The notes under the pieces are model-generated. The model was given only the letters and a program-made list of their open reading frames with translations. It had not been told where the DNA came from and ran no database searches. 64,000 nucleotides of DNA from assembly GCA_964560875.1 (NCBI GenBank), contig CAZLMW010000025.1:812-64811 (forward strand), read 5' to 3'. Of this stretch, positions 2,541-42,008 are shown piece by piece. Made by a program: the position numbers and the translations under genes. Each line of letters begins with the position of its first letter. Within the stretch, counting starts at the first letter, position 1. Source of the stretch: an uncultured Enterobacteriaceae bacterium. Its GTDB lineage: Bacteria; Myxococcota_A; UBA9042.

Positions 2541-2670
2541 CGATCCCTCCGCATCACCGCGCCCGGTTATGGGTTGGAGGCGGGTGGCGGCGGAATCTGC
2601 GCCCAGCGGCGCGAAAATGGCAAGCCCGATCAGGCGTTTTGACGCGGAGTTTCTTCACACGAATCACCCA

Positions 2671-8039: not shown

Positions 8040-8114
8040 AACGGCGCGGCTCCCTGGCGCATGGTGGAAGTGGGCTGCGACCCCGGTACCATGCACAGCG
8101 AGAGTTTGCCGGCC

Positions 8115-9263
8115 ATGCGCTACCGAAACACGACAACCTGGAACGCGTTGTTGCGAAGTGTCCTGTTGGGCCGTGTCCTGTTGGGCCGTGTCCTGTTGGG
8201 CCGTGTCCTGTTGGGCCGTGTCCTGCTGGGCCGTGTCCTGCTGGGCCGTGTCCTGCTGGGCAGTGCCCTGTTTGCGTCGTCGGCTTTTGCGGCTGGGCCA
8301 CCGACCGATTCGGCTCCCCACGGCGATGCGTCACGCATTCAGGTTGAGCTGCAGGCGGACGAAGGCGCCAAGTGCCCGACCACCGCCGAGCTTCGCGCCC
8401 AGGTAAACGCCTGCCTCGCCCCCGCGCCGAAGGGCCATATCTGCCCGCGAGCTCACGCCACCGTTCGGGTCCTTCAGTCGGCATCCAGCTTGGACGGCAG
8501 GATCCGCCTTCGCGCGGGCGACAGACAGCTCGGTGAACGCCGCCTTATCGGTCAAAGGAGCTGCAAGCAGGTCGTCGCAGCGGCCGCGCTGGCGATTTGC
8601 ATCGGCCTCGACGCGATGTGCTCGGCCCCGGTCCCGGTAAGCCCCCGACGAATGCAACACGCGCCGCCGCATCGCCAGGATCGCCTCGGCGCCGTCGGCA
8701 CGCTGCCGGCTAGCGCGGGCCCACGCATCGGAATCGCAGTTTTTGGCGCCCGCGGCGCCGCACCGGCTACGTCGGCAGGGCTTGGCTTGTCGATCGCGAC
8801 CGCGACGTGGCCGTGGCGCTTCGCTGCGGAGGCGCGGATCGATGCACCAAGCACGGCGGCGTTCCAGGGCGGAAAGATCGGCGCGTCTCTCGCACTTGGC
8901 GGACTGTCGGTCTGTCGCTCCGTGGCGAGCGTGTCGATTTGCGGCGTCCAGTACGCGGGCTTCAAGCACTTCTTCGGGCTCGGGTTTCCGCGCGAGATCG
9001 AGTCGTGGAACCGCTACTTCGCGTCGTCGCTCCGGGTCTCATGGAACGTGTGGAAGAGCGGCAACACGGGCGCGTCGATGTGGGTCCAGGCGGACGTGCC
9101 ATGGGAAGTGACACCTCACGAGGTGCTGCGCCCGCTCTCGCATGGCGATGCTCCGCAGGCGGGGTGTGAAGCCTTTCCGACAGAGAGCCGCCAAGTGTGC
9201 CAGTGGCGGCCCCCTCGAATCGGCGTGACCGTCGGTCTTGAAATTCATCGAGGTGGGCAGTGA
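8115..9263 (+). CDS. Hypothetical secreted/outer-membrane protein, first gene of an ECF sigma module; signal peptide contains (VLLGR)x7
   Basis: ATG 8115, signal peptide ending in SAFA, paired cysteines and an amphipathic beta-rich C-terminal half. The stop overlaps the sigma factor start (GTGA). Confidence 0.7.
   Translation: MRYRNTTTWNALLRSVLLGRVLLGRVLLGRVLLGRVLLGRVLLGRVLLGSALFASSAFAAGPPTDSAPHGDASRIQVELQADEGAKCPTTAELRAQVNACLAPAPKGHICPRAHATVRVLQSASSLDGRIRLRAGDRQLGERRLIGQRSCKQVVAAAALAICIGLDAMCSAPVPVSPRRMQHAPPHRQDRLGAVGTLPASAGPRIGIAVFGARGAAPATSAGLGLSIATATWPWRFAAEARIDAPSTAAFQGGKIGASLALGGLSVCRSVASVSICGVQYAGFKHFFGLGFPREIESWNRYFASSLRVSWNVWKSGNTGASMWVQADVPWEVTPHEVLRPLSHGDAPQAGCEAFPTESRQVCQWRPPRIGVTVGLEIHRGGQ
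8158..8262. repeat. 15-bp tandem repeat GTGTCCTG(T/C)TGGGCC x7
   Basis: Read directly: 4 copies with T, 3 with C (the last ends in A), then a degenerate partial copy. There are no spacers. Confidence 0.98.
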
Positions 9264-9940
9264 CGGATTCGACCGCCGACCTCCAACACCGTCTTGAGAT
9301 GGAAGCTGCCCGCGTGCTTGAAACGATTTCGACCGCCCCGCCAAGCGGCAGAAGTTTGCGATCCGAGCGCCCGGCGACCGAGAGGACCGTCGCAGCGTCG
9401 GCGCCCGAAACGGCATCGAACGCGGACGCCGAACCGGTCGATTTCGGAGCCGCGTATCGCGAGCACTTCAATCACGTGTGGCACACACTGCGCCGCCTCG
9501 GAGTCGCCGAGCGCGACCTGGAAGATACGGCACAGGAGGTCTTCATCACCGCGCACCGCCGACTCGACAGCTTCGATACGACGCGGCCCATTCGGCCGTG
9601 GCTTTCGGGGATCGCGTGGCGGGCAGCGAGCGATGAACGCAAACGTGCGCGCAATCGACGCGAGCTGGTCGGAATCAAGGCCGAACCGAGCTCGAAGGTG
9701 CCGGACCAGGCCGATCAACTGGCCGCCGCACGATCCCGGGCGTTGGTTCACAGCGCGTTGGCGAGGCTGCCCGAAGAGCAACGCATCGTTTTCATCATGC
9801 ATGAGATCGATGGCTTCTCGATGCCGGAAATCCGCGATGCGCTCGATTTCCCCCTGAACACGCTGTACTCGCGGCTGCGCCTTGCGCGCCGTAAATTCAA
9901 GGACGCGGTCGTAAGCTTACGGCCGCATGGAGGGTCGTGA
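9260..9940 (+). CDS. ECF-type RNA polymerase sigma-70 factor
   Basis: Region 2 reads YREHFNHVWHTLRRLG...EDTAQEVFITAHRRLDSFD...PWLSGIA. Region 4 reads LPEEQRIVFIMHEIDGFSMPEI....PLNTLYSRLRLAR. Confidence 0.93.
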   Translation: MTDSTADLQHRLEMEAARVLETISTAPPSGRSLRSERPATERTVAASAPETASNADAEPVDFGAAYREHFNHVWHTLRRLGVAERDLEDTAQEVFITAHRRLDSFDTTRPIRPWLSGIAWRAASDERKRARNRRELVGIKAEPSSKVPDQADQLAAARSRALVHSALARLPEEQRIVFIMHEIDGFSMPEIRDALDFPLNTLYSRLRLARRKFKDAVVSLRPHGGS

Positions 9941-10851
9941 TGAGCGTCCCCGAAGAACGCCTGGACGCCGATCTCCAGGCCCTGTTGGATGCGGAACGAG
10001 CCGCGCCCAACCCCTCTGCGGAGGTCCAGGCGCGCGTTTGGTCCAACGTGGAAACGAGCATCGCGGCCAGCGGCACTGCTGCGACGGCCTCGACCGGGAC
10101 CGGTGGCGGGGCGACTGCGCCAGCGGTAACCGCGGGCAAGGCGGCGGTCGGAAAATGGGTTGCTGCAGCCGCGTTTGTCGCGGTGGCGGCGGTCGGCGTG
10201 ATCAACCAGGCGCCGGAGCCGGAAGCGACGACCGAAACGCCGGCGCCGGCGGTTGTGGAAGCTGAGGAGCCCGTCGCGCCAGCGCGGATCGCGCCGGTTG
10301 TGCCCAAGGCCACGGCCGAAACGGCGCCGTCGGAAAAGACGGAGCGTGAAGCTCTCGCTGGACATGCGCCTACCCAGCCGACTGTTGCAGAAAGCACCGG
10401 CAACCGTACGGCCGAGCGCGCGGTCGTGGCCGCGGCTGAACCTCCCCGCCCTGCTGCTGAGCAAGCCGCGCCGCAGCCAGCCAAGCCTCGCCCTGTCCCT
10501 GCCGAGCGCCGTGCACCAGCTCCCGAAGCCCCCGCTGCAGAACCGGAAGCACCGCCGGTCGCCGAGTCGGCCGCCGATTTGAAGCGCGAGCTCGCGCAAC
10601 TCCGCGCCGCACGCGCGGCTCTTGTCGCTGGATCTGCGACCGGCGCGCTCAGCCACGCGGAAAAGCACGCGACCGAATTCCCGCGCGGCCAACTCGCCGA
10701 GGAACGTGACGCCCTCCGCATTCAGGCCCTGGCCGCGCTCGGCCGCCACGATGAAGCGCTGCGCCGCGCCGACATATTCCGGCGAACCTATCCCGGCAGC
10801 TTGATGTGGACCGCTGTCAAACGCGCCGTTGCGACCGCAGCCGACCGGTGA
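9937..10851 (+). CDS. Putative anti-sigma factor: single TM helix, Pro/Ala-rich linker, C-terminal TPR-like helical domain
   Basis: Start overlaps the sigma stop (GTGA). One hydrophobic helix (KWVAAAAFVAVAAVGVI) and C-terminal FPRGQLAEERDALRIQALAALGR...YPGS, as in myxobacterial ECF-adjacent proteins. Confidence 0.75.
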   Translation: MMSVPEERLDADLQALLDAERAAPNPSAEVQARVWSNVETSIAASGTAATASTGTGGGATAPAVTAGKAAVGKWVAAAAFVAVAAVGVINQAPEPEATTETPAPAVVEAEEPVAPARIAPVVPKATAETAPSEKTEREALAGHAPTQPTVAESTGNRTAERAVVAAAEPPRPAAEQAAPQPAKPRPVPAERRAPAPEAPAAEPEAPPVAESAADLKRELAQLRAARAALVAGSATGALSHAEKHATEFPRGQLAEERDALRIQALAALGRHDEALRRADIFRRTYPGSLMWTAVKRAVATAADR

Positions 10852-11123
10852 TCAAAAGCCGCGACCTGGCCGATCAACTGCGGCGGTCGGCAACGGCGCC
10901 GGCGCTGCCGATCGGCGAGGGGGCCAACCGACTCAACTCAGGCGAGAAGCGGCAGCGCTTCAACGAGGCGCGGGCCGAAGCGTGCGACGCCGCGGTGGCA
11001 GTGGAGCTGGCCGCGGCGCCTGGTCTGGTGCCGCCCGCCGAAGCCGAACCGCTGCTGGCGGCGGCCGACAAGGTCGCGGCCATGCTCACCGGCCTCATCC
11101 GCAAGCACAGCGGCACCCCGTGA
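10848..11123 (+). pseudogene. N-terminally truncated four-helix-bundle protein (23S rRNA intervening-sequence/bAvd-like family)
   Basis: DLADQLRRSA.....IGEG...EKRQRFNEARAEA...VAAMLTGLIR matches helices 2-4 of the family. Helix 1 is absent and the usual NIAEG reads PIGEG. Confidence 0.6.
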
Positions 11124-11131
11124 GGGCGCGA

Positions 11132-11149
11132 GTTCGGGTTCGGGTTCGG
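11132..11149. repeat. Hexamer microsatellite (GTTCGG)x3 with a degenerate continuation
   Basis: Read directly, just after the four-helix-bundle stop codon. Confidence 0.85.
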
Positions 11150-11320
11150 GTCGCTCGGACTCGGCCCATCGCTCAGTCAGCGACTTCCAGTCGGGCCTGC
11201 GGCGAGCCGCCGGCATTCCATGCAACGACGTTGGAATATGGTACGCTGGCCGGTGCAGGGACAGGTCGCTGGGTCCATCACCCCACTCCACGTATGGACC
11301 CACGCCGAGGAGCCGGCGCG

Positions 11321-12649
11321 ATGACGGGCACCACGCCACGCCGACCGACGAGCCGTTCGCCGCGCACCTGTGTGCCAGCCACCACTTCGTTCGCGTGCGT
11401 GGTTGCGATTGTATCGGCCGCGTTGCTCGCCGGCTGCGTCGCAGAGCGAGGCGTTGTTGTCGGCGTCATTGATGGCGGCGAGACGGCACTTGCCCAGCCC
11501 GTCGAACCCCAACGACGCTCGGACCACACAGCCGCCAAACCGCAGAATCTGCCAGTTCAGCGCCGCGGCACGCCACTTTTGATCGCGCAGCCGTCACAGA
11601 TCGCGGTGAAGTTCGTGCAGATCGGCAAAACCGTGAACCGTTCCGTCATGTTGAAGAACCCGGGGACGGCACAGTTGCGCATCGAGCGCATGGTGCTGAC
11701 CGGCAGCGATTCGTTCTCCGTGCGCCCATCCGGTCCGACGCACTGGACCTTGTCTTCGGCCAGGCAGGCGATCGACTTCGATCCGCCCCTCACCATCGAC
11801 CCGGGCGGCGCCTTGCCCTTGATGGTGCGCTACAAATCAGCATTGACCACGCAGGAGACGGCCGTCCTTCGTGTGCTCAGCAACGACCCGACCCGCGAAA
11901 TCGCGCTCGCCGTTCCGTTGCGCGGCAACATCGCCCCAGCTTGCTTGAAGCTGTCGCCCGCCAAGGTGCTCGACTTCGGCCATGTGGACATCGGTACCTG
12001 TCGCACACGCATCGTGGACGCCCGCAACTGCGGCGATGTTCCGGTCGTCCTGCAGCAGGCCGGATTCGTCAAACCGAAGGTTAACACGCCGTTTTCCGTG
12101 TCTTGGGGAACCGGAATGGCCGACTCGCCGTGGGTCGATCAGCAGCTGACCGGCGGCGGCAACAACGCCGTGCTTGTTGACCCGGGTCAAAAGCACGCCC
12201 TCGCAGTGACCTACTGCCCGGCCAAGGCGCCGGTCGCCTCCATCATCGATAGCGAAGTCCTGACGGTTATCGCCACGGCGCCGGGCATCAACAGCGTGCT
12301 CTGCCGCGGCCAACCGAAGAAGCCGAGCTGCCCGAAGGCCGTCGCCGGAATCAGCCAGGGCGAGATGCCCGAGGTCGGCAAGTCGATGCAGCTCACTGCG
12401 CACGACTCGTTGTCTGCCAAGGGCGTCATCAACGCGTGGTCGTGGACCATGCAGGCGCCGCCTTCGAGCAACGCCAAGCTCTACCCGAGCGCCAAGGTCC
12501 GTTCGCCCACCGTGAAGCTCGACGTCGCCGGTAGCTACACATTCTGCGTCGATGTCTGGGACAGCAAGGGCCGCAAAAGTTGCCACCCGTCTTGCTTCAC
12601 AGCGCACGTCAATGACGTCGCGGCGTACGGCACGCTTCCCGTCTGGTAG
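11321..12649 (+). CDS. Putative lipoprotein with Ig-like (choice-of-anchor D/PapD-like) domains and a C-terminal PKD/REJ-like domain
   Basis: Lipobox LLAGC. Two V.LKNPG/ARNCG-type Ig modules (VLRVLSNDP), then AWSWTMQAPPSS...DVAGSYTFCVDVWD. Confidence 0.72.
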   Translation: MTGTTPRRPTSRSPRTCVPATTSFACVVAIVSAALLAGCVAERGVVVGVIDGGETALAQPVEPQRRSDHTAAKPQNLPVQRRGTPLLIAQPSQIAVKFVQIGKTVNRSVMLKNPGTAQLRIERMVLTGSDSFSVRPSGPTHWTLSSARQAIDFDPPLTIDPGGALPLMVRYKSALTTQETAVLRVLSNDPTREIALAVPLRGNIAPACLKLSPAKVLDFGHVDIGTCRTRIVDARNCGDVPVVLQQAGFVKPKVNTPFSVSWGTGMADSPWVDQQLTGGGNNAVLVDPGQKHALAVTYCPAKAPVASIIDSEVLTVIATAPGINSVLCRGQPKKPSCPKAVAGISQGEMPEVGKSMQLTAHDSLSAKGVINAWSWTMQAPPSSNAKLYPSAKVRSPTVKLDVAGSYTFCVDVWDSKGRKSCHPSCFTAHVNDVAAYGTLPVW

Positions 12650-12653
12650 ACGT

Positions 12654-14090
12654 CTACAGCGATTTCTTAGCCGCGGGCGCGGTCTTCCAAACGAACAGGC
12701 CAAGCGTTCCTTCCGGATGCGCCGCGGTGCCGCCGAACTCCGCGAGACCCGAGACGTCGCCCACGACGTAGCGATTGCCGGCTTTGTCGAACGCGATCCC
12801 GTAGGCGCCGTCTTCTTTCTCCGACCCGGCCAGCACGGTGGATGTGACATTGCCGTCGGTCCCCAACTCGATGATGGCCGCGTCGAGGCTGCCGTAAGCG
12901 GTGCGGCTCTTGGCGCCGATCTTGACCGTGCCTTGGACGTACCCGGCGATGTGCGTATGTCCGGCGCTGTCGACAGCCAGGTCCATCTCCTCGATGGCGT
13001 CGTAGTCCGCAGTCCACTGCGCAGTGGCCCAGAGAGGCTTGCCGGCGGCGTCGAGCCTCGTGACGAACGTCGCGCCCTTGTCGTCGACAGCGACGAGGTT
13101 GGCCGACCCGATCGTCAGCCCTTTTGCGAGCCAGCCAACAACGGTGATCGAGCCATCGGGACCGAAGCGCGGCAGCTCGGCGCCGTCGTCGCCCTGGCCG
13201 GAGAACGTTCGCGCCCAGGAAACGCGCCCAAAAGTGTCGAAGCGCAGAATCATCGGATCGGAGCCGCTCGCCGACGTGAGCACCGAGTTCATCGCCTTGG
13301 CCTGGCCGGAGAACGAACCAGCTGCGACGGCGCCACCGTCGGGCGCGACGTCCACCGCATAGATGTGGTCCTCACCGCTTCCGCCGATTCCGCGGAGCCA
13401 ACGCAGCTTTCCTTTCGCGTCCCACGAGGCCACGAATCCGTCGCTACCGCCGGCGCTCGTGATCTCTTGAGACCCGGATCCCGCCGTGCTGCTGAAATCG
13501 CCGACCACGACGGTCGCGCCGCTGGCGTTGCCACCGATGCTGAACCCGTAGTCCGACGTTGCGCCGGTCACGGTTCGGACCCATTTGAAGGCGCCTGTGC
13601 TGTCGACGTGCGCGACGAAGGCCGCTTTGCCAACGCCGCTGTCGGCGTTGTGTCCCCCGAACGTGGCTTTGCCCTGCAGCGTGCCGCCAACGAACGAGCT
13701 TCCGTTTGCGGCCCGCACGATCCCGTCGCCCGTGGTGGTGCCCTGCCCTGCAGCGACCGCGTGCCATTGAAACTCGCCCCTGGAATCGAGGGCCGCGACG
13801 AAGACGGCCTGGTTGCCGCCGGTCACGATCTTGTTTTTGCCAAGCGTGATGGTTCCGCGCGCGGTCCCGGCGATGATCGCTTCACCCGCGTCAGTGACCG
13901 CCACGTCGTACGCGCCGATCTCTCCGTCCGCTCCCCCAGCGACCGCGACGTACGGAATGCCGGCCGCTTTGTTCTGCTTGGCCCCTTCGGATTCAACCGT
14001 GGTACTGCAAGCCAATGTCGAGACAGACGCGACGCAGATGACGAGCCATTGGGCGCTTGAGAATGCGTGGTGGTTGGCAGGGCGATTCAT
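12654..14090 (-). CDS. Lipoprotein with SBBP-like beta-propeller repeats
   Basis: Lipobox TLAC. Repeated units such as YDVAVTDAGEAIIAG, YAVDVAPDGGAVAAG and YGIAFDKAGNRYVVG, each followed by D.FV...D..G...W. Confidence 0.85.
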   Translation of the reverse strand: MNRPANHHAFSSAQWLVICVASVSTLACSTTVESEGAKQNKAAGIPYVAVAGGADGEIGAYDVAVTDAGEAIIAGTARGTITLGKNKIVTGGNQAVFVAALDSRGEFQWHAVAAGQGTTTGDGIVRAANGSSFVGGTLQGKATFGGHNADSGVGKAAFVAHVDSTGAFKWVRTVTGATSDYGFSIGGNASGATVVVGDFSSTAGSGSQEITSAGGSDGFVASWDAKGKLRWLRGIGGSGEDHIYAVDVAPDGGAVAAGSFSGQAKAMNSVLTSASGSDPMILRFDTFGRVSWARTFSGQGDDGAELPRFGPDGSITVVGWLAKGLTIGSANLVAVDDKGATFVTRLDAAGKPLWATAQWTADYDAIEEMDLAVDSAGHTHIAGYVQGTVKIGAKSRTAYGSLDAAIIELGTDGNVTSTVLAGSEKEDGAYGIAFDKAGNRYVVGDVSGLAEFGGTAAHPEGTLGLFVWKTAPAAKKSL

Positions 14091-14240
14091 GGCGTCTCCG
14101 TGGTCGGTGGCCGCGTCGTGGAGCCGGCCTTACATATCGGACCCGTGGCGTCGACGAAAACCGAAAACGAAAATGTCGTGGCAAATGTAGACGAGGCTGC
14201 GGGTGCGCGCGCGCTGGGTGTCCAATGAACAGGAGGCGCG

Positions 14241-17200
14241 ATGGCGTTCGACGTCGGCTACAACCACAAGGCGACCATGAGCACGGCCCTGACCCCGTCG
14301 AAGGCGCTGCCAGGGGCGGCCGTTCGCGCGTGGTCGGCGGCGATCGTGGGCCATGGTTGCGCCGCGGCGGCCCTTGCGTGGCGGTATCGTGGTTGTCAGC
14401 CCGACGACGAACTGCAGGCTCGGATCACAGCCCATGCCTGTGAGGTCTCGGTCGCTATCCCGACCGCCAGAGATGTCACGTTTGCAGCGGTGGCGGCAGC
14501 CTTCGAAGAGGTCTTGCGGGCGCAGCCTGCCGAGTTGATCGCCGTGTGCGCCCGCGTTGGCCAGGTTTGCGTTCACATCGATGACGTCGACCACGACCGG
14601 ACGCTGCTCTCCGCGACCGTCGACACCAGCAATGGTTTGCGAATCGATGTTTCCGTCTCTCCCTCGGCCAGCTTCTTCGCCGTCCAGCCGCGCGTTGCCG
14701 GCCACTACGAGAGGACCCTCAAGGCGATCGCCGCCGACGACACGAGTGCGATCAGCTCGATCGAGATCATCGGCAGCGACGAAGCAGACGTGTTGCGCCG
14801 CTTCAGCGGGCAGGCGTTCCGCCGGGATCTCGCCGCGCACATCTGCCTCTTTGAGTTGTTCGACGCGACCGTCGACGGAGCCGCCAACCGCCCGGCGCTG
14901 ACGTATCGCGGCATCGATGTGACCTATGCGGAGCTCGAGGCCGACGCGAACCGGATCGCGCGCCACCTTCGCTGTGTCGGCGTACGTACCGGGGACAAGG
15001 TCTCGCTGTGGTTGCCGCGCGGATTGCTTCCGTACGCTGCGATCCTCGGCGCGATGAAGGCCGGCGCTGCCTACGTTCCCATTGACCCGGCGTTTCCCGC
15101 TGACCGCGCTCGTTTTATCAACCAGGACGCGGCCGTGTCCGCCATGATCACGGTCACCGAGCTCGGCGGAATGCTCGACGACTGCGAATCCGCCGTTGTG
15201 CTGCTGGATCGCGATCAGGCGGCCATTGAAAAACTCCCGGCGACGAGACTGTCCGCGTCCGATCCCGTGTTCGCCGACGATCGGGCGCCCATCCCCAGCG
15301 ACCCCGCCTACGTCATTTATACGTCCGGCTCGACCGGCGTCCCCAAGGGGGTGCAGATTTCTCACAGCGCCGCGGCCAACCTCGTTCGCGCGTCCCACCA
15401 TGTCTACGATTCGCGGGCGGACGATCGGGTCTTCCAGGGGTTCTCGCTCGCGTTCGATGCCTCTATTGAAGAGCTATGGCTGGCGTTCTACATGGGCGGC
15501 ACGCTCGTCGTGGGTGATGCCGATGTCGCGATGAGCGGCCCGGAGCTCGCCGGTTTCCTCCGCCGCCAACGCGTCACAGCCTGGTCGACGGTCCCCACCC
15601 AACTCTCGATGATGCAAGATGACGTTCCGTCGCTGCGCTTGCTCATCCTCGGCGGAGAATTCTGCCCCACGGAGCTCTTGCGGCGCTGGTATCGCCCCGA
15701 TCGGCTTGTCGTGAACACGTACGGCCCCACCGAAGCGACCGTGATCGCCACGCATGCGCGCTGTCATCCCGATGACGTCGTCACCATCGGCGTGCCTGTG
15801 CCGAACTACCGCGTTTTCCTGCTCGACGAGGCGCAGCGGCCGGTCCCCCTCGGTTGCGCCGGCGAGATTTGCATTGCGGGCCCCGGCCTGGCCGACGGCT
15901 ACGTGGGGCGCGATGAGCTGAACGCGACATGTTTTGTGGCGCCGCCATTTGAGATTGGCGATGGGCTTGCCCAGCGCGTGTACCGGTCCGGTGATGTGGG
16001 CCGCTACGACGACCGCGGCCGCATCCAGTTCGAAGGCCGGGTCGACAACCAGGTCAAGATCCGCGGCTACCGCGTCGAACTCAGCGAGATCGAGTCCATC
16101 CTCTTGGGCTGTGATGGCGTCGCAGCCGCCGTCGTCACTGTGCGCGAAGAGGACGGCATCAAACGGCTCGTCGCATATCTCGTCGCCGCCGCCGGAGCGG
16201 CTCTAAGCGCCTCCGGGTTGCGCGCGACTCTCCGCGACCTCGTGCCCGGCTACATGGTTCCGTCCGTTTTCGCCGCGATGGATGAGCTGCCGTCGCTACC
16301 CAGCGGAAAGGTCGACCGCCGCCGCCTGCCTCCGCCCGAAGAGTGCGCGATCGTCGACGACCGATCGTACGTCGCACCTCGCAACGCCACCGAACGCGTG
16401 CTGCAGTCCGTCATCACCGAGCTGCTTGGCCCATCGCCCGTGTGCATTCACGACGACTTCTTCGACCTTGGCGGTCACTCGTTGCTCGCCGCACGCGCCG
16501 TTTCGCGTCTGCGCAACGAGCCGGGCATGGACGGGCTGTCGATCGAAGCCATCTACCGGTTCCCGACCATCGCCGAGCTCGCCGTCCACATCGACAAGAC
16601 ATATGGCGCGGCGCCGGTTCGCCAGACCATTCGGGTGATGGCCGTCGCCCCCGAACCCGAGCGCCGCTCCATCGCGCGGGCCGCCGCCATCCAGGCCGCG
16701 GCCCTGTACCCATTGCTGGGGCTCTTTTCACTCGCTCTGCTCGTCCCATGGCTACTCGACCGGCTTTTTCCGGCCATCGACGCGGTTGCGTGGCTTGTCG
16801 CTTCCGGTGCAGGGCTGCTCGCGCTACCGGTCCTGCTTGTTGCCGTTTCGATCGCGACCAAGTGGGCGCTAATCGGTCGCTTCGAGGCCGGACAGTGGCC
16901 GTTGTGGAGCGGCTACTACCTGCGTTTTTGGTTCGTTTGCCGCGTTGTCGACCTGGTCCCCATGCGGCTGCTTCGCGGCACACCGTGGATGGCGGCTTAT
17001 CTGCGCTGGATGGGCGCGGATATCGGGCCTGACGTGCACATCGACAGCGATCGATTCCGCGCGTTCGACTTGGTGCGCATCGGCGCCGCGAGCAGCATCG
17101 GTGGCGACGCTCACATGATGGCCTACGAGGTGCGGGACGGTATTTTGCGGGTTGGGCCGATCTCGGTTGGGGACGGCTGCTTTGTCGGCGCACGCTCGGT

Positions 17201-18773
17201 CGTCTCGCACAGCACGCGGCTTGAAGATAGCGCGCGGCTTGGCGAGCTGTCGTTGTTGCGGCCCGGCCAAACCGTACCCGCCGGCGACTATTGGCACGGC
17301 GCCCCGGCCCGCGCCGTGGCTGAGGCGCCCCCTCTTGGAACGGAAAACGCCGAGAGGTCGACCCCCACCATCGGCTGGTATGGCCTGTTCGCCGTGGCTT
17401 TGGCGTGGGTCCTGGCGGTCCCCGTGATCGCGGTCACCCCGACCGTCTGGCTGATGTTCGAAGCGTGGGTCTCTGCCGGTCTCGGCGCCGCCGTTGCCGC
17501 TTCGTTGCCCGGGTCCTGGTTGTTTGTGGCGTGTTTCCTCGGCCTTGTCGCCGCGACCAAGTGGATAGTTCTCGGTCGCATCGAACCCGGGGCGTGGCCC
17601 GTGCACTCGACGATGTACATCCGCAAATGGCTGGTCGACGCGCTGGTGCAGTCGAGCTTGATGGTTGTGCAGCCGATCTACGGCACGATTTGGTTGCCGC
17701 CATGGCTGCGGATGATGGGCGCCCGTATCGGTCGCCGGGCCGAGATTTCGACGGTGGATCACCTCTCGACCGATCTGCTCGAAGTTGGCGACGAGTCGTT
17801 CATCGCCGATTCCGTAAGCGTCGGTCCGCAACGCGTCCACAACGGAGTTGTCGCGGTGGGCGGTGCCCGAATCGGGCGTCGCAGCTTTGTCGGCAACAGC
17901 GCGCTCCTTCCGGCCTCCAGTGACGTTCCGTCCGGCCAACTCGTCGGCCTGGTGAGCCGTCCGCCAGACTCGGATATCGCGGCGACATCAAGTCACCTGG
18001 TGTGGCTGGGTTCGCCGCCGATGGCCCTGCCCCGTCGCCAAAAAAGCGCGTCGTTCGCCGATGAGGAGACGTTCCATCCGCCCCGCCATCTCGTCTTCGC
18101 GCGCGGGATCGTCGAGCTGTTCAAGATCGGGCTGCCACCCGCGCTGTCGATGTGCGTCTTCGTCATTTCGTATTTTGTGTTGGCGGCGATGGGCAATCGG
18201 CTCGGCGTCGTGGGCTACGTACTTGCCGCGCCGCTTGTGGTCCTTTTCGCTGGCATCTTCGCCTCGGGCGTTGTGGTCGCGGCCAAGTGGGCGCTTGTGG
18301 GCAAATACGTCGAGCGAAACCTGCCGCTCTGGCATCCCCACGTGTGGTTGAGCGAGCTGATCAACGCGCTGTGGGAAAACGTCACCTACCCGTTCTTGTC
18401 CCGGTTCCTGCTGGGCACGCCGTGGATGGCGCCGCTGCTTCGAGCCATGGGATCGCGCATCGGCAAGGGCGTCTACATCGACACCATCGAGGTCACCGAA
18501 TTCGATCTCGTCGACATCGACGACCACGCGTGCATCAATTACGGTGCGACCGTGCAGACGCACCTTTTCGAGGATCGGGTGATGAAGATGGCGGGCCTGC
18601 ATATCGGCAACGGCGCGACCATCGGCCCGATGGCGGTTGCGCTCTACGGGTCGGTGATGGGCGAGCGAGCGTGTCTTGATGGCCTGTCGCTGCTGATGAA
18701 GGGCGAGTCGCTGCCCGCGCGGACGAGGTGGGCCGGTTCGCCCGCCCAAATGGTGCCGTACGTCGGCGTGTAA
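14241..18773 (+). CDS. pls: Pls/PosA-family membrane-bound non-ribosomal peptide synthetase (epsilon-poly-L-lysine synthetase-like)
   Basis: SD AGGAGG at 14231-14236. A domain (YTSGSTGVPKG, FDAS, NTYGPTE, YRSGD, QVKIRGYRVEL, PSGKVDR). T domain DDFFDLGGHS (Ser at 16479-16481). Then three TM-pair plus left-handed beta-helix repeats ending in QTHLFEDR. No canonical C or TE domain. Confidence 0.95.
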   Translation: MAFDVGYNHKATMSTALTPSKALPGAAVRAWSAAIVGHGCAAAALAWRYRGCQPDDELQARITAHACEVSVAIPTARDVTFAAVAAAFEEVLRAQPAELIAVCARVGQVCVHIDDVDHDRTLLSATVDTSNGLRIDVSVSPSASFFAVQPRVAGHYERTLKAIAADDTSAISSIEIIGSDEADVLRRFSGQAFRRDLAAHICLFELFDATVDGAANRPALTYRGIDVTYAELEADANRIARHLRCVGVRTGDKVSLWLPRGLLPYAAILGAMKAGAAYVPIDPAFPADRARFINQDAAVSAMITVTELGGMLDDCESAVVLLDRDQAAIEKLPATRLSASDPVFADDRAPIPSDPAYVIYTSGSTGVPKGVQISHSAAANLVRASHHVYDSRADDRVFQGFSLAFDASIEELWLAFYMGGTLVVGDADVAMSGPELAGFLRRQRVTAWSTVPTQLSMMQDDVPSLRLLILGGEFCPTELLRRWYRPDRLVVNTYGPTEATVIATHARCHPDDVVTIGVPVPNYRVFLLDEAQRPVPLGCAGEICIAGPGLADGYVGRDELNATCFVAPPFEIGDGLAQRVYRSGDVGRYDDRGRIQFEGRVDNQVKIRGYRVELSEIESILLGCDGVAAAVVTVREEDGIKRLVAYLVAAAGAALSASGLRATLRDLVPGYMVPSVFAAMDELPSLPSGKVDRRRLPPPEECAIVDDRSYVAPRNATERVLQSVITELLGPSPVCIHDDFFDLGGHSLLAARAVSRLRNEPGMDGLSIEAIYRFPTIAELAVHIDKTYGAAPVRQTIRVMAVAPEPERRSIARAAAIQAAALYPLLGLFSLALLVPWLLDRLFPAIDAVAWLVASGAGLLALPVLLVAVSIATKWALIGRFEAGQWPLWSGYYLRFWFVCRVVDLVPMRLLRGTPWMAAYLRWMGADIGPDVHIDSDRFRAFDLVRIGAASSIGGDAHMMAYEVRDGILRVGPISVGDGCFVGARSVVSHSTRLEDSARLGELSLLRPGQTVPAGDYWHGAPARAVAEAPPLGTENAERSTPTIGWYGLFAVALAWVLAVPVIAVTPTVWLMFEAWVSAGLGAAVAASLPGSWLFVACFLGLVAATKWIVLGRIEPGAWPVHSTMYIRKWLVDALVQSSLMVVQPIYGTIWLPPWLRMMGARIGRRAEISTVDHLSTDLLEVGDESFIADSVSVGPQRVHNGVVAVGGARIGRRSFVGNSALLPASSDVPSGQLVGLVSRPPDSDIAATSSHLVWLGSPPMALPRRQKSASFADEETFHPPRHLVFARGIVELFKIGLPPALSMCVFVISYFVLAAMGNRLGVVGYVLAAPLVVLFAGIFASGVVVAAKWALVGKYVERNLPLWHPHVWLSELINALWENVTYPFLSRFLLGTPWMAPLLRAMGSRIGKGVYIDTIEVTEFDLVDIDDHACINYGATVQTHLFEDRVMKMAGLHIGNGATIGPMAVALYGSVMGERACLDGLSLLMKGESLPARTRWAGSPAQMVPYVGV

Positions 18774-18821
18774 TCGGCAGAGTCTGGACCGCGCGTGAAT
18801 GCCGCAAACACCATCCATTCC

Positions 18822-19631
18822 ATGCGTCGCGTCGCGATCGTCGCAGCTTTGGTCGTTGCGTTGGGGACCGTGTCGTCCCCTGCGTTCGCCGTCGACACGA
18901 ACGAGACCATCGACCACGGCGCGATGTATTTTGAGTTCTTCGTTGGCTATTACGGCGTGAACAAACCGCTCTTGCAGCAACAGGTTGTTTCCGGCGGCGC
19001 CATGGCGTTCGGCCTGGCCGAGGGGTTTACCGGCTACCTGTCGCTCGCTGGCCGCAGCAACCCCTATTTTGGCGACGGCTACGGGCGGACCGGATTCGGC
19101 TTGCTGTACACGGTCTACAACTCGCCGCACGTGTCGATCGACCTGATGCTCGACGCAGGAACGGGCGGCGCTGGTCCGCAGCCGTTGCTCTTTCATCCAG
19201 CCGCTGAGCTCAACAGCGGTTTCGCGGTGACTCCCGGGCTGGAATTCAACTACGACCACGACGAAGAGATGAATGACTGGGGCCTGTTTGGCGTCGTGCA
19301 GGAGATCGTCACCGGCCGCACGAAGATCGCGTACGACGACGAGCTGAACGAGACCGTGACCTACACCTTCGCGCCGTGGATGCGCCTGACGACGGGCGCG
19401 TACATCACCGCGATACCGGACACAGAACAGTGGTTGATCCAAGCGCTCTGGCGGTGGCGACAGAATCCAGACACGAACCAGGCGACGTTCCAGGTCGATG
19501 GCATTGGCATGGGCTACAACCGCATGCTCAACGACGAGCTGGAAGTCGCGACCGAAATCTACCTCGATATCCCCAACGAGACCGGCGAGGTGTGGGGGAT
19601 CGGGCTCGGCATCGGCGTGCTTCGTTGGTAG
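18822..19631 (+). CDS. Hypothetical secreted protein, probable outer-membrane beta-barrel
   Basis: Sec signal MRRVAIVAALVVALGTVSSPAFA, Gly/aromatic-rich amphipathic strands and a C-terminal GIGLGIGVLRW with terminal aromatic residue. Confidence 0.7.
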   Translation: MRRVAIVAALVVALGTVSSPAFAVDTNETIDHGAMYFEFFVGYYGVNKPLLQQQVVSGGAMAFGLAEGFTGYLSLAGRSNPYFGDGYGRTGFGLLYTVYNSPHVSIDLMLDAGTGGAGPQPLLFHPAAELNSGFAVTPGLEFNYDHDEEMNDWGLFGVVQEIVTGRTKIAYDDELNETVTYTFAPWMRLTTGAYITAIPDTEQWLIQALWRWRQNPDTNQATFQVDGIGMGYNRMLNDELEVATEIYLDIPNETGEVWGIGLGIGVLRW

Positions 19632-20224
19632 CCAGAACGCTCGTCTTGGCCGTGGGGGTTGCGGTCATCGTGGCGCCGATGGATGCGCGGGCGGCGTCGA
19701 AAACGGACCACCAGCGGCTTGAGAAGTACTACTCCGTCCAGCAGACACCCTATTCGTGTTCGATGGCGACAGCGCGCATGGCCATCGGGGCGCTGACCGG
19801 TCGAACCATCACCGAACGCACGCTGCGTAAGGCATCACGTGTCAGCCGCAACGGGATGTCGCTGGGACGGTTGGCGGGGTTTCTGCAGCGCTACCGACCC
19901 AAAGGCGCGCGGCGCGGATTCTGTGTGAAGAAGACGATCGCTCCGTCCAGGAAGCGGTTCGTCGCGCTCCTCAAATCCGTGCAAGCCGATCCCGCGCGTA
20001 TCATGACGTGTCGATGGAAGCTGCCCGATGGCACGACGCACCACTCGCCGATCGCGAAGCTGGGACGCGGCAACAAGCGCGTGTACGTCATGGACGTGGA
20101 TCGTGGACCGCGCTGGATCGGTACCCAGGCGTTCGTGCGCGCCATGCGCAGCCAGCTCACCGGGTGCCTCGTCATCTCGAAGAAGCCCAAACGTCGAGGC
20201 CATCGCAAAGCGGGCTGCCGCTGA
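19625..20224 (+). CDS. Secreted papain-fold cysteine peptidase (C39/phytochelatin-synthase-like)
   Basis: The TTG start overlaps the upstream stop. Signal peptide, QQTPYSC (oxyanion Gln and catalytic Cys), HHSPI (His) and VMDV (Asp), paralleling HFSP...LDV of PCS. Confidence 0.75.
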   Translation: MVARTLVLAVGVAVIVAPMDARAASKTDHQRLEKYYSVQQTPYSCSMATARMAIGALTGRTITERTLRKASRVSRNGMSLGRLAGFLQRYRPKGARRGFCVKKTIAPSRKRFVALLKSVQADPARIMTCRWKLPDGTTHHSPIAKLGRGNKRVYVMDVDRGPRWIGTQAFVRAMRSQLTGCLVISKKPKRRGHRKAGCR

Positions 20225-20280: not shown

Positions 20281-20871
20281 ATGCAGCCGATGACTCAGCG
20301 CGATATCAAGACGCCGTTGACCATGGATCGGCGCGCGCGACAACTCCTGACCGCGGTTGTGACCGGCATGCTCGTCGTCGGCACCTGGGGATGCGGATCC
20401 GCGGCGGCGTCGCGAGCGGAAAGGCAAGCGCGGCTGCAGGACAAACTCGCGCGCAACGCGGTTGTGGCGCTGGGCCCCGAGATCATCCGGGTAACGCCAG
20501 GCGATATGTTTACAATCGACGTTCAAGTGCGTGTTATTGAGGGTTTTTACGTTGTCGCCCATGGCGCCGAAGAGCAGGATTTGATGCCGGCGTGGATCGA
20601 CGCGCCCAAGCGGGGAATGCTCGTCACCAGGAAGACCGTTTGGCCCAAGGGAGGGCTGGTCGAGCTGCCGGGTCGGTCCAAACCGCTGCCGTCATACGAC
20701 AAGCCGTTCATCGTTGGCCTGACGGTGCACATCGCGCCCGGTGTGCAGCCCGGTGATCGCACGGTGACGATCCCGTTTCACTACCAGCAGTGCACGGTGC
20801 GTGGCTGTGAAGTGCCGCGAAAAAGGGATGTCCGCGTCAGCCTCGAAGTGCTGCCCAAACCGACCGAATAG
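20281..20871 (+). CDS. Lipoprotein with DsbD N-terminal-like (Ig-fold, redox-active Cys pair) domain
   Basis: Lipobox TWGC, GFYVVAHG, and YQQCTVRGCEVP resembling the nDsbD YQxC-x4-5-CxxP motif. Confidence 0.7.
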   Translation: MQPMTQRDIKTPLTMDRRARQLLTAVVTGMLVVGTWGCGSAAASRAERQARLQDKLARNAVVALGPEIIRVTPGDMFTIDVQVRVIEGFYVVAHGAEEQDLMPAWIDAPKRGMLVTRKTVWPKGGLVELPGRSKPLPSYDKPFIVGLTVHIAPGVQPGDRTVTIPFHYQQCTVRGCEVPRKRDVRVSLEVLPKPTE

Positions 20872-24631: not shown

Positions 24632-27600
24632 TCACCTGGGATCGAGGTCGGGCGCATCGTAGCAGACCGCGTCGCCGTTGGAGTCGGCGCGCCGGACCGC
24701 GATCAAGATGGTGGTCGCGAGCAGCACCAGGAGCAGCCAGGCGATGGATTGGCCCGGACCGACTGGCCTGGTGCGCGCGCTGCAGCCGTTTTCTTCGTCC
24801 GAGGGCTGTTTGGTCTGCGTCTTTTCCGCGTCTTTGCGCTTGCCGTCATCGCGCACACCGGGTGGTCCACAGGTCCCATCTGACTTGGGCGCCTCGTCGT
24901 CTGCGCACATCAGCACCTCGAGCTCCGCGCCGGCGAGGTGGCCGCCGTAGTCGCTGACCAGCAGCTCTACTTTGTAGCGACCAGCCGGCAGCACCTTGCC
25001 GTCGGGTGGCCCGACGATGTTCGGAGCGTCGACCCGCATGATCCACGTGTGATTGAGCTTGTAGGTGGCCGTCGCGAGCGGCTTCTGGAAGCGATAGACC
25101 AACTTTCCGCTGGTATCTCGCATCGTGAGTCGGGCGCTCGCGAGGCGCGTCTTGTCGGACAGGTCGGCCTTGAGGACGGTCGTGAAGACCTTGCGCGACA
25201 CTGTCGCTGGCTCCGCGCGGAAGTTGGTGATGTGTGGCGCTGACAGGTCCACGACCTTGACGCCGTCGGACGCCCGTGGACCGGAGAAGGAGCGGCTGGC
25301 GCCCGCCTTCGTGTAGCCCAGCACCTCAGCTCGGTAGAGCGTGTTGGGCTGCAGGTGAAGCTTGTTGACCGTCGTCCCGGTCACGTTGCCGACGTCCTTG
25401 AGCGAGCTCACGACGGCCCCGTCCTGGTCGAGCAGCCGGATCGCGTAGCCATCGGCCTTGTCGAGCTTGGCCCAGTTGACGTGGACGGCGTCGGTCGTCT
25501 CCTGGAAGTCGAGGTCGGCCGCGTCGGTCAGGGCCGGGCCGGTTCCCGCGTTTTCGCGCACCCATGCGGGCGGCTTCAGCGCGTCCTGCCCGAGCACGGA
25601 GAGGTACCCGTCAGGGGTGCCCACAACCACCTCGAGCAGGTTGTCACCGTCGAGATCCGCGGCGATTGTGCCCGCGACAGTGCCGGAGAAAGCGAGCGAC
25701 CAGACGACATCGCCGGTCAGGGCACGGGCCGCATAGAGCCGGCCTTCCGTCGTCGAGAAGAGCAACGCCGACTTGCCCGTTCCGTCCAGGTTGCGCACAC
25801 CGATGAGGCCATCGTTGGTCACGCCGCCTGGCGCCTGTGTCCCCGGCGGCAGCGCTTTTCCGGCGGCGTAGCCACGGTCCCAGATGGGTTTGCCGGTCTT
25901 GCCGCTGAGCGCGCGCAGGGCGGATGTGCCGTGCTTTGTCGTCACCACGCGGGGCAGCTTGCCGTCGGTCCAGGCGACGGCCCGGCGGTGGTAATAGAGC
26001 GAGCTCTTGTCGGTCCACAGTTGCCCGAACTTGGGGCCGACGTAGGCGCCGATGCCGCCTGCGCCTGATGCGATGATGGGGTCGAGCGGCGGCTTGGTGT
26101 CGAGGTCGAAGAGCATCGGGATGCCGTACGTCACGTTGCCCTGCTGCACGTAGTTGAGCTGCTTGCCGGTCTTGAGGTCGCAGCGCCACCGGTAAACATA
26201 CGCCGACGCGACGGCGACGGGCGACGCACCGGACGTGTCGATGGCGATCGGTCGGCCGGCCATGGCGCTGGCGCACTCGGCGGATGCAGGCCACATCAGT
26301 TTGCCGGTTTTACCGTCGAGAACGCGGAAGAACGTGCCCTCGGGTGCCGGGTTGATGGGCGTTGTGAACGACGCGATCACGTCGATCGCGCCATCGCCGT
26401 TGACGTCGTGCAACGCAAACGCGTCCCCTTCGGTCCACCGCGCCCAGTTCATGCTTTCATTGGCGTGTTTGAAGGTCCAAAGGGCGGTTTTCGACGCGAG
26501 CTTGGTCCCGTCGAACGCTGTCAGCCAGGGGCGGCCGTCTGCGCCGCTGTGACGCACGAGCAGGTCGAGTTTGCCGTCGCCGTTGACGTCGGCGAGGTTG
26601 GCGCGCACCCAGCCGCGGAACCGGTCTTTGAAGCGTTGCACCGGCGCGTCGGTCGGGCCGGCCTTGGCCGCGTCCAGCATCCACACCCACGAGCCCGCGC
26701 TCACGGCCATAGCGGTCGCGCCGCCTTTCGGGTCGCGATCCACGATCACGTACGGGTTTGTTTGTCCGCCGTAGCGCAGATCCGCGACCCCATCTTTGTC
26801 ACCGTCGTTGATGCGCTGGAGTTTGCTGTCTAGCAGCTCGGTTTCGCCGTTGCCGAGCAGGATCGCGGGGAGTTTCAGGTCGCCCTTGCGCAACATGACG
26901 CGCGCCATCGGGCTCGCCGCCAGCGTTCCCGACGCTGTGACCTTCGCCTGTCCGTCCGGCGTGACGGCGAGCAGCGCAACCGCGTCGTCGAACCCATCGC
27001 CATCGGTGTCGGCTGTGCGGAGCAAGTGCCCGGCCGTGTCGAGTCCGTCGATAGTGAGCAGTTGGCTGGGACGCGGGAACACGGTCGCGGGCACGGCTTT
27101 GGGGCGGACCGCGGCGTAGCGCCCCTTGGTCAGCTCCCCCATTGCCTGGAAGCCCAGGCTTCGCGACCACAGCACAAAGGCGTGCGGCAACGCTTCGATC
27201 GTGGCCTTCGTGCCGCGTTTCTCGGCGAGCAGCAGCACTTTCTTCGAACCGGCCATCGACCATGCGTTCGTCAGCGCGTAGCCGAGGCCAGATGTCGCGG
27301 GTAGGTCGTGGAGCATCGAGCCCGACAACGCATCGAACGCGCGCAGCCGCCACCCGGACGCGGTGCGGGTCGACGCGATGACCTCGGCTTTGCCGTCGCC
27401 GTCGAGGTCGCCGATTGCCGCGGCGGGCGCCCGAATCGCGTTTTTCTTGGGATCGCCGGCGTTGACGATCCAAAGGCGCTTGATCTCCTTGCCGACAAGC
27501 TGAAACGCCGCGACGGCGCGCTGGTTGTTCTTGAGGCCGGACGTTAGGCGGTCGGCGACGCAAATGACGACAGGGTTGGCGTTTTTCTGGGGGAGGCTCA

Positions 27601-28387: not shown

Positions 28388-28578
28388 GTGTCGACTCCCG
28401 CCGGCGCCGCAGCGTCCGGTCGTTCCCGCCTCTAAAGCCGTTGTCGGGCTCAAACTGAAGGTTGCAAGAAGGAGTATGTACATAACCCGTCCGGGATCGG
28501 CTACGGCTCCCACGCGGGCGATCGAGATCTGCTACCATCGTGGCTGTGACGCCGATTGGAATCCCCTGCCGGATCGCG

Positions 28579-36779: not shown

Positions 36780-36931
36780 CAATTGCGAGAAGACAGGGTT
36801 GAGTGAATATGGCACCGCGCGCTACCGCCGAGCCTAGCACATCGACAATCGGCCATCACAAAGTCTCGATAATGCTGTTTTACTCTGCCGGTGGGGCAGG
36901 CATTCGGGGGGCTTCGTGGCATACTCCGGCG

Positions 36932-40357: not shown

Positions 40358-40370
40358 AGCCGCCTAGAGC
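40350..40370. repeat. Perfect 10-bp tandem duplication CCGCCTAGAG x2 at a convergent gene junction
   Basis: Read directly. Each copy contains CTAG; the two copies supply the TAG stops of the two convergent genes. Confidence 0.9.
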
Positions 40371-41233: not shown

Positions 41234-42008
41234 TGAGCTCAGCGAGCGGATCGATCTGCAGGTAGCCGCGAAGCCAGCGCACGCCCATGTAGAACGGCAC
41301 GGTGTCGATCAGCGCGCAGACGAACTTGAACACATACCCCGAGGCGATGAGCGCGAACAACTGCGGCCAGATGGGTTGGTCGGCCTGGATCGGCAGCGCC
41401 TTGGCGTAGAAGTGGGTGATGAGGATGACCGCGGTGGAATCGACGAGCTGGCTCGCGAGGGTCGACGCGTTGTTGCGAAGCCACAGGTGCTTGCCTTTGG
41501 TCACGCGTTTCCAGAAGTGAAAGATGTACACATCACACATCTGCGCGGCCAGGTAGGCGATCATCGACGCGGCGACCGCGCCAAATGCCAGCGCGCGGAT
41601 TTCGTAGAACACGGGAACGCGGCCGGCGGCGTCGCGGACCAATTCTCCGGTCGTTGGGTCGATCGCCTCGTAGCCCGGCAAGATGCCGCCCGACCAGAGC
41701 ACTGCCACGACCCACACATTCAGCGCCAACCCCATCCACACGACGGCGCTGGCGCGGGCACGCCCGTAGAATTCGCTGATGAAATCGGTGCAGAGGAAGG
41801 TGACTGGATACGGCAAGACGCCCACGGCCAACACAAACGGGATCTTTGTGCCCGCCACCTCGAAGCTCATGTCGATGAAGCGGCTGATGCCGAGGATGTT
41901 GAGCATCGTCAACGAGCCGAGAAATAGCCCCGTCAGCACCAGAAACACGCGTTCACGGCGCGCGTGAAGGGCCGAAGCCTCGATCGGATGTAGCGCGGGT
42001 TCAGCCAT
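41226..42008 (-). CDS. yhhQ: Queuosine precursor transporter (YhhQ/VUT family)
   Basis: YPVTFLCTDFISEFYG, ASMIAYLAAQ..D...FH and WLRNNASTLASQLVDS motifs. Confidence 0.92.
   Translation of the reverse strand: MAEPALHPIEASALHARRERVFLVLTGLFLGSLTMLNILGISRFIDMSFEVAGTKIPFVLAVGVLPYPVTFLCTDFISEFYGRARASAVVWMGLALNVWVVAVLWSGGILPGYEAIDPTTGELVRDAAGRVPVFYEIRALAFGAVAASMIAYLAAQMCDVYIFHFWKRVTKGKHLWLRNNASTLASQLVDSTAVILITHFYAKALPIQADQPIWPQLFALIASGYVFKFVCALIDTVPFYMGVRWLRGYLQIDPLAELNG

Follow-up and report, generated by a model that had tools for sequence, protein, structure and literature searches.

The closest described counterparts of the protein analysed here are Pls of Streptomyces albulus and PosA of A. 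baumannii, both synthetases of cationic homo-poly-amino acids. PosA, a Gram-negative member, had its biochemistry and structure characterised in 2023, and its products are 7-12-mers only; a class for genes of this kind, NAPAA, already exists in antiSMASH. In Streptomyces albulus, the pls gene is translationally coupled to pldII, which encodes an endopeptidase that degrades epsilon-polylysine and acts outside the membrane (PMC9223678). The stretch of DNA examined in this work, 64,000 nucleotides of contig CAZLMW010000025.1 (GenBank assembly GCA_964560875.1) and referred to below as the window, contains a gene for a 1510-aa nonribosomal peptide synthetase (NRPS) of the same Pls/PosA family, followed on the same strand by two genes, d278 and d190. 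Our preferred reading, to which we give a probability of roughly 70%, is that this protein is a functional inner-membrane Pls/PosA NRPS making epsilon-poly-L-lysine, and that the polymer is trimmed by d190 and exported via d278.

Domain architecture of the synthetase

The synthetase gene and its principal domains were delimited as follows.

14241-18773, + strand: single-module NRPS of the Pls/PosA family, 1510 aa, a cationic homo-poly-amino-acid synthetase predicted to make epsilon-poly-L-lysine (TIGR02353, collinearity with PosA)
14859-16328, + strand: adenylation (A) domain, residues ~207-696 (code DAESIGTVIK, core motifs intact)
16401-16589, + strand: thiolation (T, or carrier) domain, residues 721-783 (PF00550); Ser747 in GGHS is the codon at 16479-16481
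16656-17345, + strand: repeat unit 1, residues 806-1035, comprising transmembrane segments TM1 and TM2 and a left-handed beta-helix (LbH) (hydropathy, Hexapep match at 974-1004, LbH and gamma-carbonic-anhydrase-like PDB matches)
17346-18092, + strand: repeat unit 2, residues 1036-1284, comprising TM3, TM4 and LbH (hydropathy, inter-repeat alignment, LbH PDB matches)
18093-18770, + strand: repeat unit 3, residues 1285-1510, comprising TM5, TM6 and LbH (hydropathy, inter-repeat alignment, LbH PDB matches)

The NCBIfam model TIGR02353, named 'Pls/PosA family NRPS', matched residues 817-1502 over positions 2-695 of its 695 with a score of 594.7 bits against a cut-off of 423.1, and the NCBIfam model AA-adenyl-dom scored 403 bits. 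Pfam matches were to AMP-binding (residues 207-554, E 4e-84), AMP-binding_C (616-690), PP-binding (PF00550, 721-783, E 2e-7) and Hexapep (974-1004). By these domain searches, the protein has one A domain and one PP-binding domain, with no thioesterase and no functional condensation domain. The core motifs of the A domain are all intact (A3 at residue 360, A4 FDAS at 405, A5 NTYGPTE at 492, A7 at 581, A8 at 599 and the A10 lysine K690), and the carrier site GGHSL begins at residue 744, with H746 and S747 invariant across the alignment of the clade.

Hydropathy placed six transmembrane segments in three pairs, at approximately 817-840/848-872, 1042-1066/1085-1108 and 1293-1316/1322-1348. The three units, each a transmembrane pair with its LbH, are 24-31% identical to one another in pairwise comparison and have the motifs KWxLxGR, GTPW and LRxMGxxIG in common, and repeat unit 3 carries the family-invariant motif QTHLFEDRVMK, which is present in PosA too. 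The PDB sequence matches of the C-terminal 700 residues were all to left-handed beta-helix proteins and were spread over all three units. Judged by its sequence, the synthetase is an intact member of the Pls/PosA family, the NAPAA class of antiSMASH.

A first-pass annotation of this gene had called it a Pls-like NRPS with the architecture A-T-(TM2-LbH)x3. The family assignment was borne out by the TIGR02353 score above cut-off and by collinearity with the active PosA at 33% identity, and so was the core of the architecture, with its transmembrane pairs, repeats and LbH folds. That annotation overlooked a half condensation domain of ~195 residues at the N-terminus, and it overlooked the conserved downstream genes.

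Specificity code and predicted substrate

The Stachelhaus code of the A domain, obtained by motif-anchored extraction, was DAESIGTVIK, the same result as that given in the first-pass annotation. As a positive control, the extraction returned the published code DMEHNGTVSK for PosA (sequence from PMC10522769 Supp. Table 3). Nine of the ten positions are the same as in DAESIGTVVK, the proven lysine (Lys) code of S. albulus Pls, the difference being Ile for Val at position 9, and the match to the lysine pocket is thus near but not exact; Ala is present at position 2. Asp at position 1 and Glu at position 3, the ligands of the alpha- and side-chain amines, are kept, and the Glu is conserved in every characterised family member (PMC10522769 Supp. 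Table 2). According to a proposed rule for substrate length, position 2 is Phe for diaminopropionic acid (Dap) or diaminobutyric acid (Dab), Met for ornithine (Orn) and Ala for Lys, and the M218A mutant of PosA gains activity on Lys (PMC10522769). An Acidobacteria homologue with exactly DAESIGTVIK is listed as predicted Lys (Patel & Gulick, PMC10522769 Supp. Table 2). The lysine-type code claimed at first pass therefore stood, given the nine positions held in common with Pls, the exact match to a predicted-Lys code and the Ala at position 2; the comparison then made was with the bacitracin synthetase BacB, but S. albulus Pls is the better comparator. Lysine as the substrate is a strong prediction from the code, not a fact.

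The same family and the same chemistry could also serve another cationic monomer (L-ornithine, beta-lysine, D-lysine, arginine or hydroxylysine), which we consider unlikely. The known codes for Orn, Dab, Dap and beta-Lys differ from that of the window at at least three positions, including position 2, which is Met, Phe or Gly (PMC10522769), whereas positions 1-8 and 10 are the same as in the proven Pls, the change from Val to Ile is conservative, and codes ending in V-K and I-K are intermixed among close relatives. Another monomer is nevertheless favoured by the history of PosA, whose code was first read as Lys-like, being nearest to a Lys code, yet Orn is preferred 160-fold (PMC10522769); code-based substrate calls have thus failed before in this family. 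The exact code DAESIGTVIK would mean Lys by prediction only, with one position in ten, the Ile for Val, unlike Pls. Nor is the A domain of the window nearest to the Pls A domain by sequence: with the A-T profile of the clade, generic NRPS A domains (PheA, 505 bits; ApnA A1, 540 bits) outscored the Pls A domain (416 bits), and with the single synthetase sequence the Pls A-domain structure 7WEW scored 259.5 bits, a level that unrelated NRPS A domains also reach.

Genes for a predicted barrel and a predicted peptidase downstream

The first two genes that follow the synthetase are these.

18795-19631, + strand: d278, a signal-peptide protein predicted to form an outer-membrane beta-barrel of ~12 strands (AlphaFold 2 (AF2) model, Foldseek); starts 21 nt after the synthetase stop
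19625-20224, + strand (called GTG start at 19652): d190, predicted to be an exported cysteine peptidase or transpeptidase with a papain fold (clan CA), similar to phytochelatin synthase and C39 (Pfam, aligned triad)

The spacing of synthetase, d278 and d190 (a gap of 21 nt, then an overlap) is consistent with one operon. A TTG start of d190 at 19625 overlaps the end of d278 (TTGGTAG, 19625-19631) and restores a signal peptide that is truncated by the GTG call at 19652; it is the likely start of d190, and its overlap with the d278 stop suggests that the two genes are translationally coupled.

No family match to d278 was found in Pfam or NCBIfam, and an exhaustive HMMER scan gave a small and uncharacterised family of 368 representative clusters. 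The protein has a signal peptide and ends in ...(K/R)W, as do its homologues on longer contigs (loci L084, L085 and L087), while a homologue on a partial contig (P0140) does not. AF2 modelling from an alignment of 4 sequences gave an all-beta structure of 12-13 strands (pLDDT 65.6, pTM 0.61). A Foldseek search of the PDB with this model gave 158 matches at E <= 0.001, and all 50 of the 50 listed were outer-membrane barrels or scaffolds derived from them, headed by FapF (E 1.3e-7, TM-score 0.53-0.57) and followed by OmpG, NanC, COG4313 and autotransporter barrels. Of the marks of outer-membrane barrels, the signal peptide and the C-terminal aromatic residue are present in the d278 sequence and the all-beta antiparallel barrel in its model.

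For d190, the Pfam family Phytochelatin (PF05023) matched at E 3.7e-8 and 33.3 bits, against a cut-off of 24.9, and there was a weak match to Peptidase_C39. Residues Q30, C36, H130 and D148 (numbered from 19652) are conserved and align with the catalytic residues of a canonical phytochelatin-synthase (PCS)-like protein also encoded in the window, so that the features of a clan-CA, PCS-like enzyme, namely a PF05023 score above threshold, the Cys-His-Asp triad and the oxyanion Gln, are present. A low-confidence single-sequence model (pLDDT 51) gave clan-CA peptidases (C39, C70, SpeB) as its first matches; a direct sequence search of the PDB with d190 gave none. The d190 protein of the window has a signal peptide, and the homologues at L084 and L085 carry lipoboxes.

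The canonical PCS-like protein (PF05023, E 2.6e-54) is a fold paralogue of d190 with 26% identity. Its gene overlaps that of a Vut_1 transporter of queuosine/vitamin-uptake type, the two lying at 40364-41233 and 41226-42062 on the - strand.

Linkage was assessed by running hidden Markov models (HMMs) of d278 and d190 against all open reading frames of 91 loci, the window lineage included. Homologues of d278 adjoin the synthetase only in the window lineage, at L084 (P0002), at L085 (P0003) and at L087 (P0005 cluster), and none was found in the 84 other non-window loci. For d190, homologues were limited to the window lineage, L084 and L085, apart from a fragment at L086 (P0004). The d278-bearing loci have GC contents of 65%, 69% and 41%, and a linkage kept between 41 and 69% GC spans unrelated genomes. 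In a neighbour-joining tree, which carries no bootstrap values, sequences P0001-P0012 group into one clade, identical with the d278-associated set. Synthetase genes beyond it usually have as their downstream partner a gene for 4'-phosphopantetheinyl transferase (PPTase), which adjoins or is fused to Pls/PosA-like genes at L001, L007, L009, L022, L030, L055, L058, L077 and L088-L091; in P0039, P0050 and P0089 the PPTase domain (PF01648) is fused to the synthetase.

The predicted fold of d190 would allow a different use of the polymer. Phytochelatin synthases are transpeptidases that work via an acyl-enzyme on a papain-fold cysteine, and d190, with its complete triad retained, could likewise act as a transpeptidase and not a hydrolase, transferring short oligolysine chains to lipid, lipoprotein, peptidoglycan or exopolysaccharide as an envelope modification, in place of a free antimicrobial polymer that is secreted. 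That its homologues are membrane-anchored lipoproteins, that PosA makes 7-12-mers only and that the neighbours are envelope proteins (lipoproteins, EamA) would suit such a role. We nonetheless judge it quite improbable: cyanobacterial PCS-like enzymes are mainly hydrolases, no conserved acceptor-synthesis genes accompany the cassette, and an outer-membrane channel suits export better. Trimming of the polymer by d190 and its export via d278 is the reading that we prefer.

The N-terminal remnant of a condensation domain

Ahead of the A domain lies a region that Pfam and NCBIfam did not detect.

14241-14825, + strand: N-terminal extension, residues 1 to ~195, a vestigial C-terminal lobe (C-lobe) of a condensation domain with the linker to the A domain (profile matches; no HHxxxDG)

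When the N-terminal 206 residues were searched alone, there was no match in either database, including none to Pfam Condensation, and the C-lobe became visible only with a profile of relatives. PDB alignments of the whole synthetase reach back to approximately residue 130-150, into the ends of the condensation domains of LgrA, McyA, TycB and PvdL. A profile of the extension built from 9 relatives matched NRPS condensation domains only, and only their C-terminal halves (approximately 225-465), as in McyB (236-467, E 8e-13), Txo1 (233-453), TycB (228-453) and SrfA-C (217-450). The profile of the whole clade aligned without a break with the C-lobe-A-T portions of SrfA-C (221-1042), LgrA, TycB and BmdB. 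The extension is not a full condensation domain with both lobes, since only the C-terminal lobe was found and the HHxxxDG motif is absent; by its sequence, the N-terminal stretch of ~195 residues amounts to half a condensation domain, catalytically dead. That such a half domain marks a partner for an upstream NRPS was considered and rejected, as the 64-kb window has no second NRPS gene.

A protein search at E <= 1e-10 returned 7,606 relatives of the synthetase, the best non-self relative being 50% identical, and the 130 closest full-length sequences were retrieved for counts of codes and N-termini. The C-lobe remnant is present in 51 of these 130, and is thus a recurrent 'long form' not peculiar to the window; cultured Pedobacter and Hymenobacter strains carry it, as do metagenome-assembled genomes (MAGs) of Janthinobacterium and Taibaiella. 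On the simplest reading, the ancestor of the Pls/PosA family may have been a normal C-A-T elongation module joined to the membrane polymerase, and the short forms would have lost the remnant.

Integrity of the synthetase gene

The extension appears to be translated, as a candidate ribosome-binding site precedes its start codon.

14231-14236, + strand: Shine-Dalgarno-like AGGAGG, 4 nt 5' of the ATG at 14241 (read from the sequence)

The position of this AGGAGG upstream of the ATG supports translation of the N-terminal extension. A promoter scan gave 0 promoters, and terminators were no more frequent than expected by chance.

The degraded N-terminal domain, together with the lack of a PPTase in the window, raises the alternative of a synthetase gene that is silent or no more than an inactive relic, with d278 and d190 as unrelated neighbours; the P0004 locus, which has lost d278 and keeps only a fragment of d190, points the same way. 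We hold this to be very improbable. The synthetase is an unbroken frame of 1510 codons with exactly the coordinates of the first-pass annotation, its catalytic motifs are intact, and its codon bias is gene-like, with a GC content at third codon positions of 0.81 that is in line with the genuine genes of the window, whose own GC content is ~65% and uniform along its length. Approximately 250 positions are invariant in the alignment of the clade, although its 12 relatives are only 38-48% identical to the window protein, and this indicates purifying selection on the synthetase. The same protein was found on contigs from several independent samples, and synteny with d278 has been maintained across genomes of 41% and of 65-69% GC.

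Proposed mechanism

In the scheme that we favour, the A domain would adenylate L-lysine, as its code suggests, and attach it through a thioester bond to the phosphopantetheine arm at Ser747, for whose installation the genome must presumably encode a PPTase elsewhere. The domain of six transmembrane segments and three LbH folds would then work iteratively, as homology with Pls and PosA suggests, the epsilon-amine of a free lysine or of an oligomer attacking the thioester. The product would be isopeptide-linked epsilon-poly-L-lysine, made with no template and no thioesterase, while the N-terminal ~195 residues would most likely do no more than support the A domain. Release of the polymer in this sub-clade would probably be into the periplasm. 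Judging by conserved synteny and by where the two proteins are predicted to reside, the co-transcribed d190 may then trim or process the polymer, like PldII, and the co-transcribed d278 barrel may pass it across the outer membrane. The coupling of pldII to pls provides a functional precedent for an exported peptidase in a synthetase operon, though the fold of d190 differs.

Several observations weigh against this scheme, in addition to those given above for the substrate. The accessory genes owe their assigned roles to synteny seen at no more than four or five independent loci, and the P0004 locus (L086) is without d278. The structure proposed for d190 comes from a low-confidence model, and that of d278 from a model of medium confidence. 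No PPTase gene or motif was found within the 64-kb window. A solved structure of the polymerisation domain was not found, as the PDB search returned generic LbH proteins only and no cryo-EM structure turned up in the literature search; there is also no defined set of catalytic residues for this domain, and its check was limited to family conservation. The linkage (epsilon or alpha) and the chain length are not readable from the sequence.

It is possible, but with the odds against it, that the synthetase, d278 and d190 would together form an undescribed dedicated envelope-spanning system, in which a diderm makes a polycationic isopeptide at the inner membrane, trims or transfers it in the periplasm and exports it by an outer-membrane channel of its own with no harm to its envelope. 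The barrel and peptidase cassette offers a lead on how Gram-negative producers export a membrane-active polycation and control its length, a matter of importance when preservatives like epsilon-polylysine are to be produced heterologously in such hosts.

Distribution of the family

The code is exactly DAESIGTVIK in 105 of the 130 closest full-length relatives, and 11 of the 130 have the Pls code DAESIGTVVK. A scan of species-representative genomes gave at least 589 confirmed Pls/PosA-like loci, and no relative above 45% identity was present among the loci listed. In the set of 87 loci made up of the best 80 genome loci and 7 metagenome contigs of the window lineage or close relatives, DAESIGTVIK was the dominant code (26 loci). 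Its carriers include Bacteroidales, Pedobacter, Verrucomicrobia, Tepidisphaerales, Isosphaeraceae, Schlesneria, Holophagaceae, Binatia, Elusimicrobia, Bacillus rhizoplanae and Clostridia, and also two MAGs labelled Myxococcales (L005 and L061). A Pls/PosA-like gene with the unusual code DFEGEGTITK was observed in a Methanothrix sp. MAG (L032, PMNG01000181.1), on a contig binned to this methanogenic archaeon; either the archaeon truly carries the gene or the binning is at fault.

The first-pass annotation had held that a diderm producer of such a polymer would be notable. This was overstated, since PosA had already been characterised, dozens of diderm genomes have the same code, the two Myxococcales MAGs among them, and the NAPAA class exists. 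Literature searches for a myxobacterial Pls or NAPAA found no dedicated study. The synthetase adds a new, divergent member, from an uncultured lineage, to a family that is already known and very widely distributed, and the claim of novelty is not upheld, as public MAGs of the lineage had such genes before; knowledge of polylysine-type synthetases is left unchanged. The residual interest lies in the sub-clade-specific cassette of barrel and cysteine peptidase and in the vestigial half condensation domain.

Other genes of the window

The remaining genes of note in the window are listed here.

1146-4032, - strand: genes for a glutamine-synthetase-like protein and, beside it, an aldehyde dehydrogenase, which may form a pair for gamma-glutamyl-polyamine catabolism
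8061-12649, + strand: four-gene operon, with one gene for an extracytoplasmic function (ECF) sigma factor (9260-9940) and one for a protein with an Ig/ASH domain; not conserved beside relatives
12654-14090, - strand: divergent gene for an SBBP beta-propeller lipoprotein, directly upstream of the synthetase; not conserved beside relatives
20281-20871, + strand: d196, putative lipoprotein, the last + strand gene before a convergent EamA gene; no Pfam or NCBIfam match, not conserved in relatives
24632-28513, - strand: FG-GAP/beta-propeller protein of 1293 aa, one of a divergent pair of giant secreted-type proteins
28540-32724, + strand: MopE-repeat protein of 1394 aa, the other member of that pair
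36803-40357, + strand: STAND-type signalling protein of 1184 aa, a fusion of a Ser/Thr kinase with an NB-ARC/AAA ATPase and TPR repeats
55980-58754, - strand: 924-aa protein with a spermine/spermidine-synthase domain

It is doubtful that d196 is part of the synthetase system. This gene, the upstream 478-aa beta-propeller lipoprotein and EamA were all rejected as parts of it, as tblastn and HMM searches were negative in non-window loci outside the sub-clade. The 1394-aa protein has at least 8 MopE-type copper-binding repeats (E 3.7e-85), and MopE-repeat proteins also flank the relatives at L084 and L086. Several polycation-related genes share the window with the synthetase, which is an observation of co-location only. 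No rRNA, tRNA or Rfam element was found in the window.

The first-pass annotation had proposed a probable myxobacterium as the source of the DNA, which is plausible but weakly supported. The DNA polymerase III delta subunit (HolA) of the window has a relative in a Myxococcota MAG at 46% identity, while its closer matches, at 61-64%, are metagenome proteins; the MopE repeats, the FG-GAP protein, the kinase-NB-ARC-TPR fusion and the ECF sigma factor operon fit Myxococcota but are not proof of it.

Comparison with known systems

The window protein shares the A-T-(TM2-LbH)x3 core and membership of TIGR02353 with Pls of S. albulus (BAG68864.1; A domain 7WEW), but is ~190 aa longer at the N-terminus, where it has the vestigial C-lobe, comes from a diderm host and has a divergent A domain. 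Both classical Pls and PosA have approximately 1320 aa and begin at the A domain, whereas ~195 residues precede the A domain in the window protein. A peptidase gene is coupled to the synthetase in both the Pls locus and the window, pldII in the former and d190 in the latter, although the partner in the window is a papain-fold cysteine enzyme and not a metallopeptidase, and is accompanied by an outer-membrane barrel gene.

PosA, the delta-poly-L-ornithine synthetase of A. baumannii (ATY43264; 8G95-8G98), is likewise a diderm member and is collinear with residues 193-1508 of the window protein at 33% identity. Both proteins carry the KWxLxGR, GTP and QTHLFEDR motifs and the amine-binding Asp and Glu. 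Unlike the window protein, PosA has the code DMEHNGTVSK, with Met at position 2, prefers Orn, is encoded in a single-gene operon and has no N-terminal C-lobe.

The barrel protein d278 resembles FapF (5O65), the 12-strand polypeptide transporter of the Pseudomonas functional-amyloid system, in that each is a small outer-membrane barrel whose gene shares an operon with a system that forms a secreted polymer, barrel and secreted polymer being predictions in the case of d278. The sequence identity between the two is only ~11%, however, and the likeness is at the level of a generic barrel, with OmpG, NanC and autotransporter barrels scoring nearly equally.

The long-form homologues of Pedobacter cryoconitis, P. 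lusitanus, Hymenobacter, Taibaiella and Janthinobacterium, which have approximately 1490-1570 aa, share with the window protein both the C-lobe remnant and the same or nearly the same Lys-type code. They are 40-45% identical to it, and where their surroundings were checked, the next gene was usually that for a PPTase, in contrast to the barrel and peptidase genes that follow the synthetase in the window.

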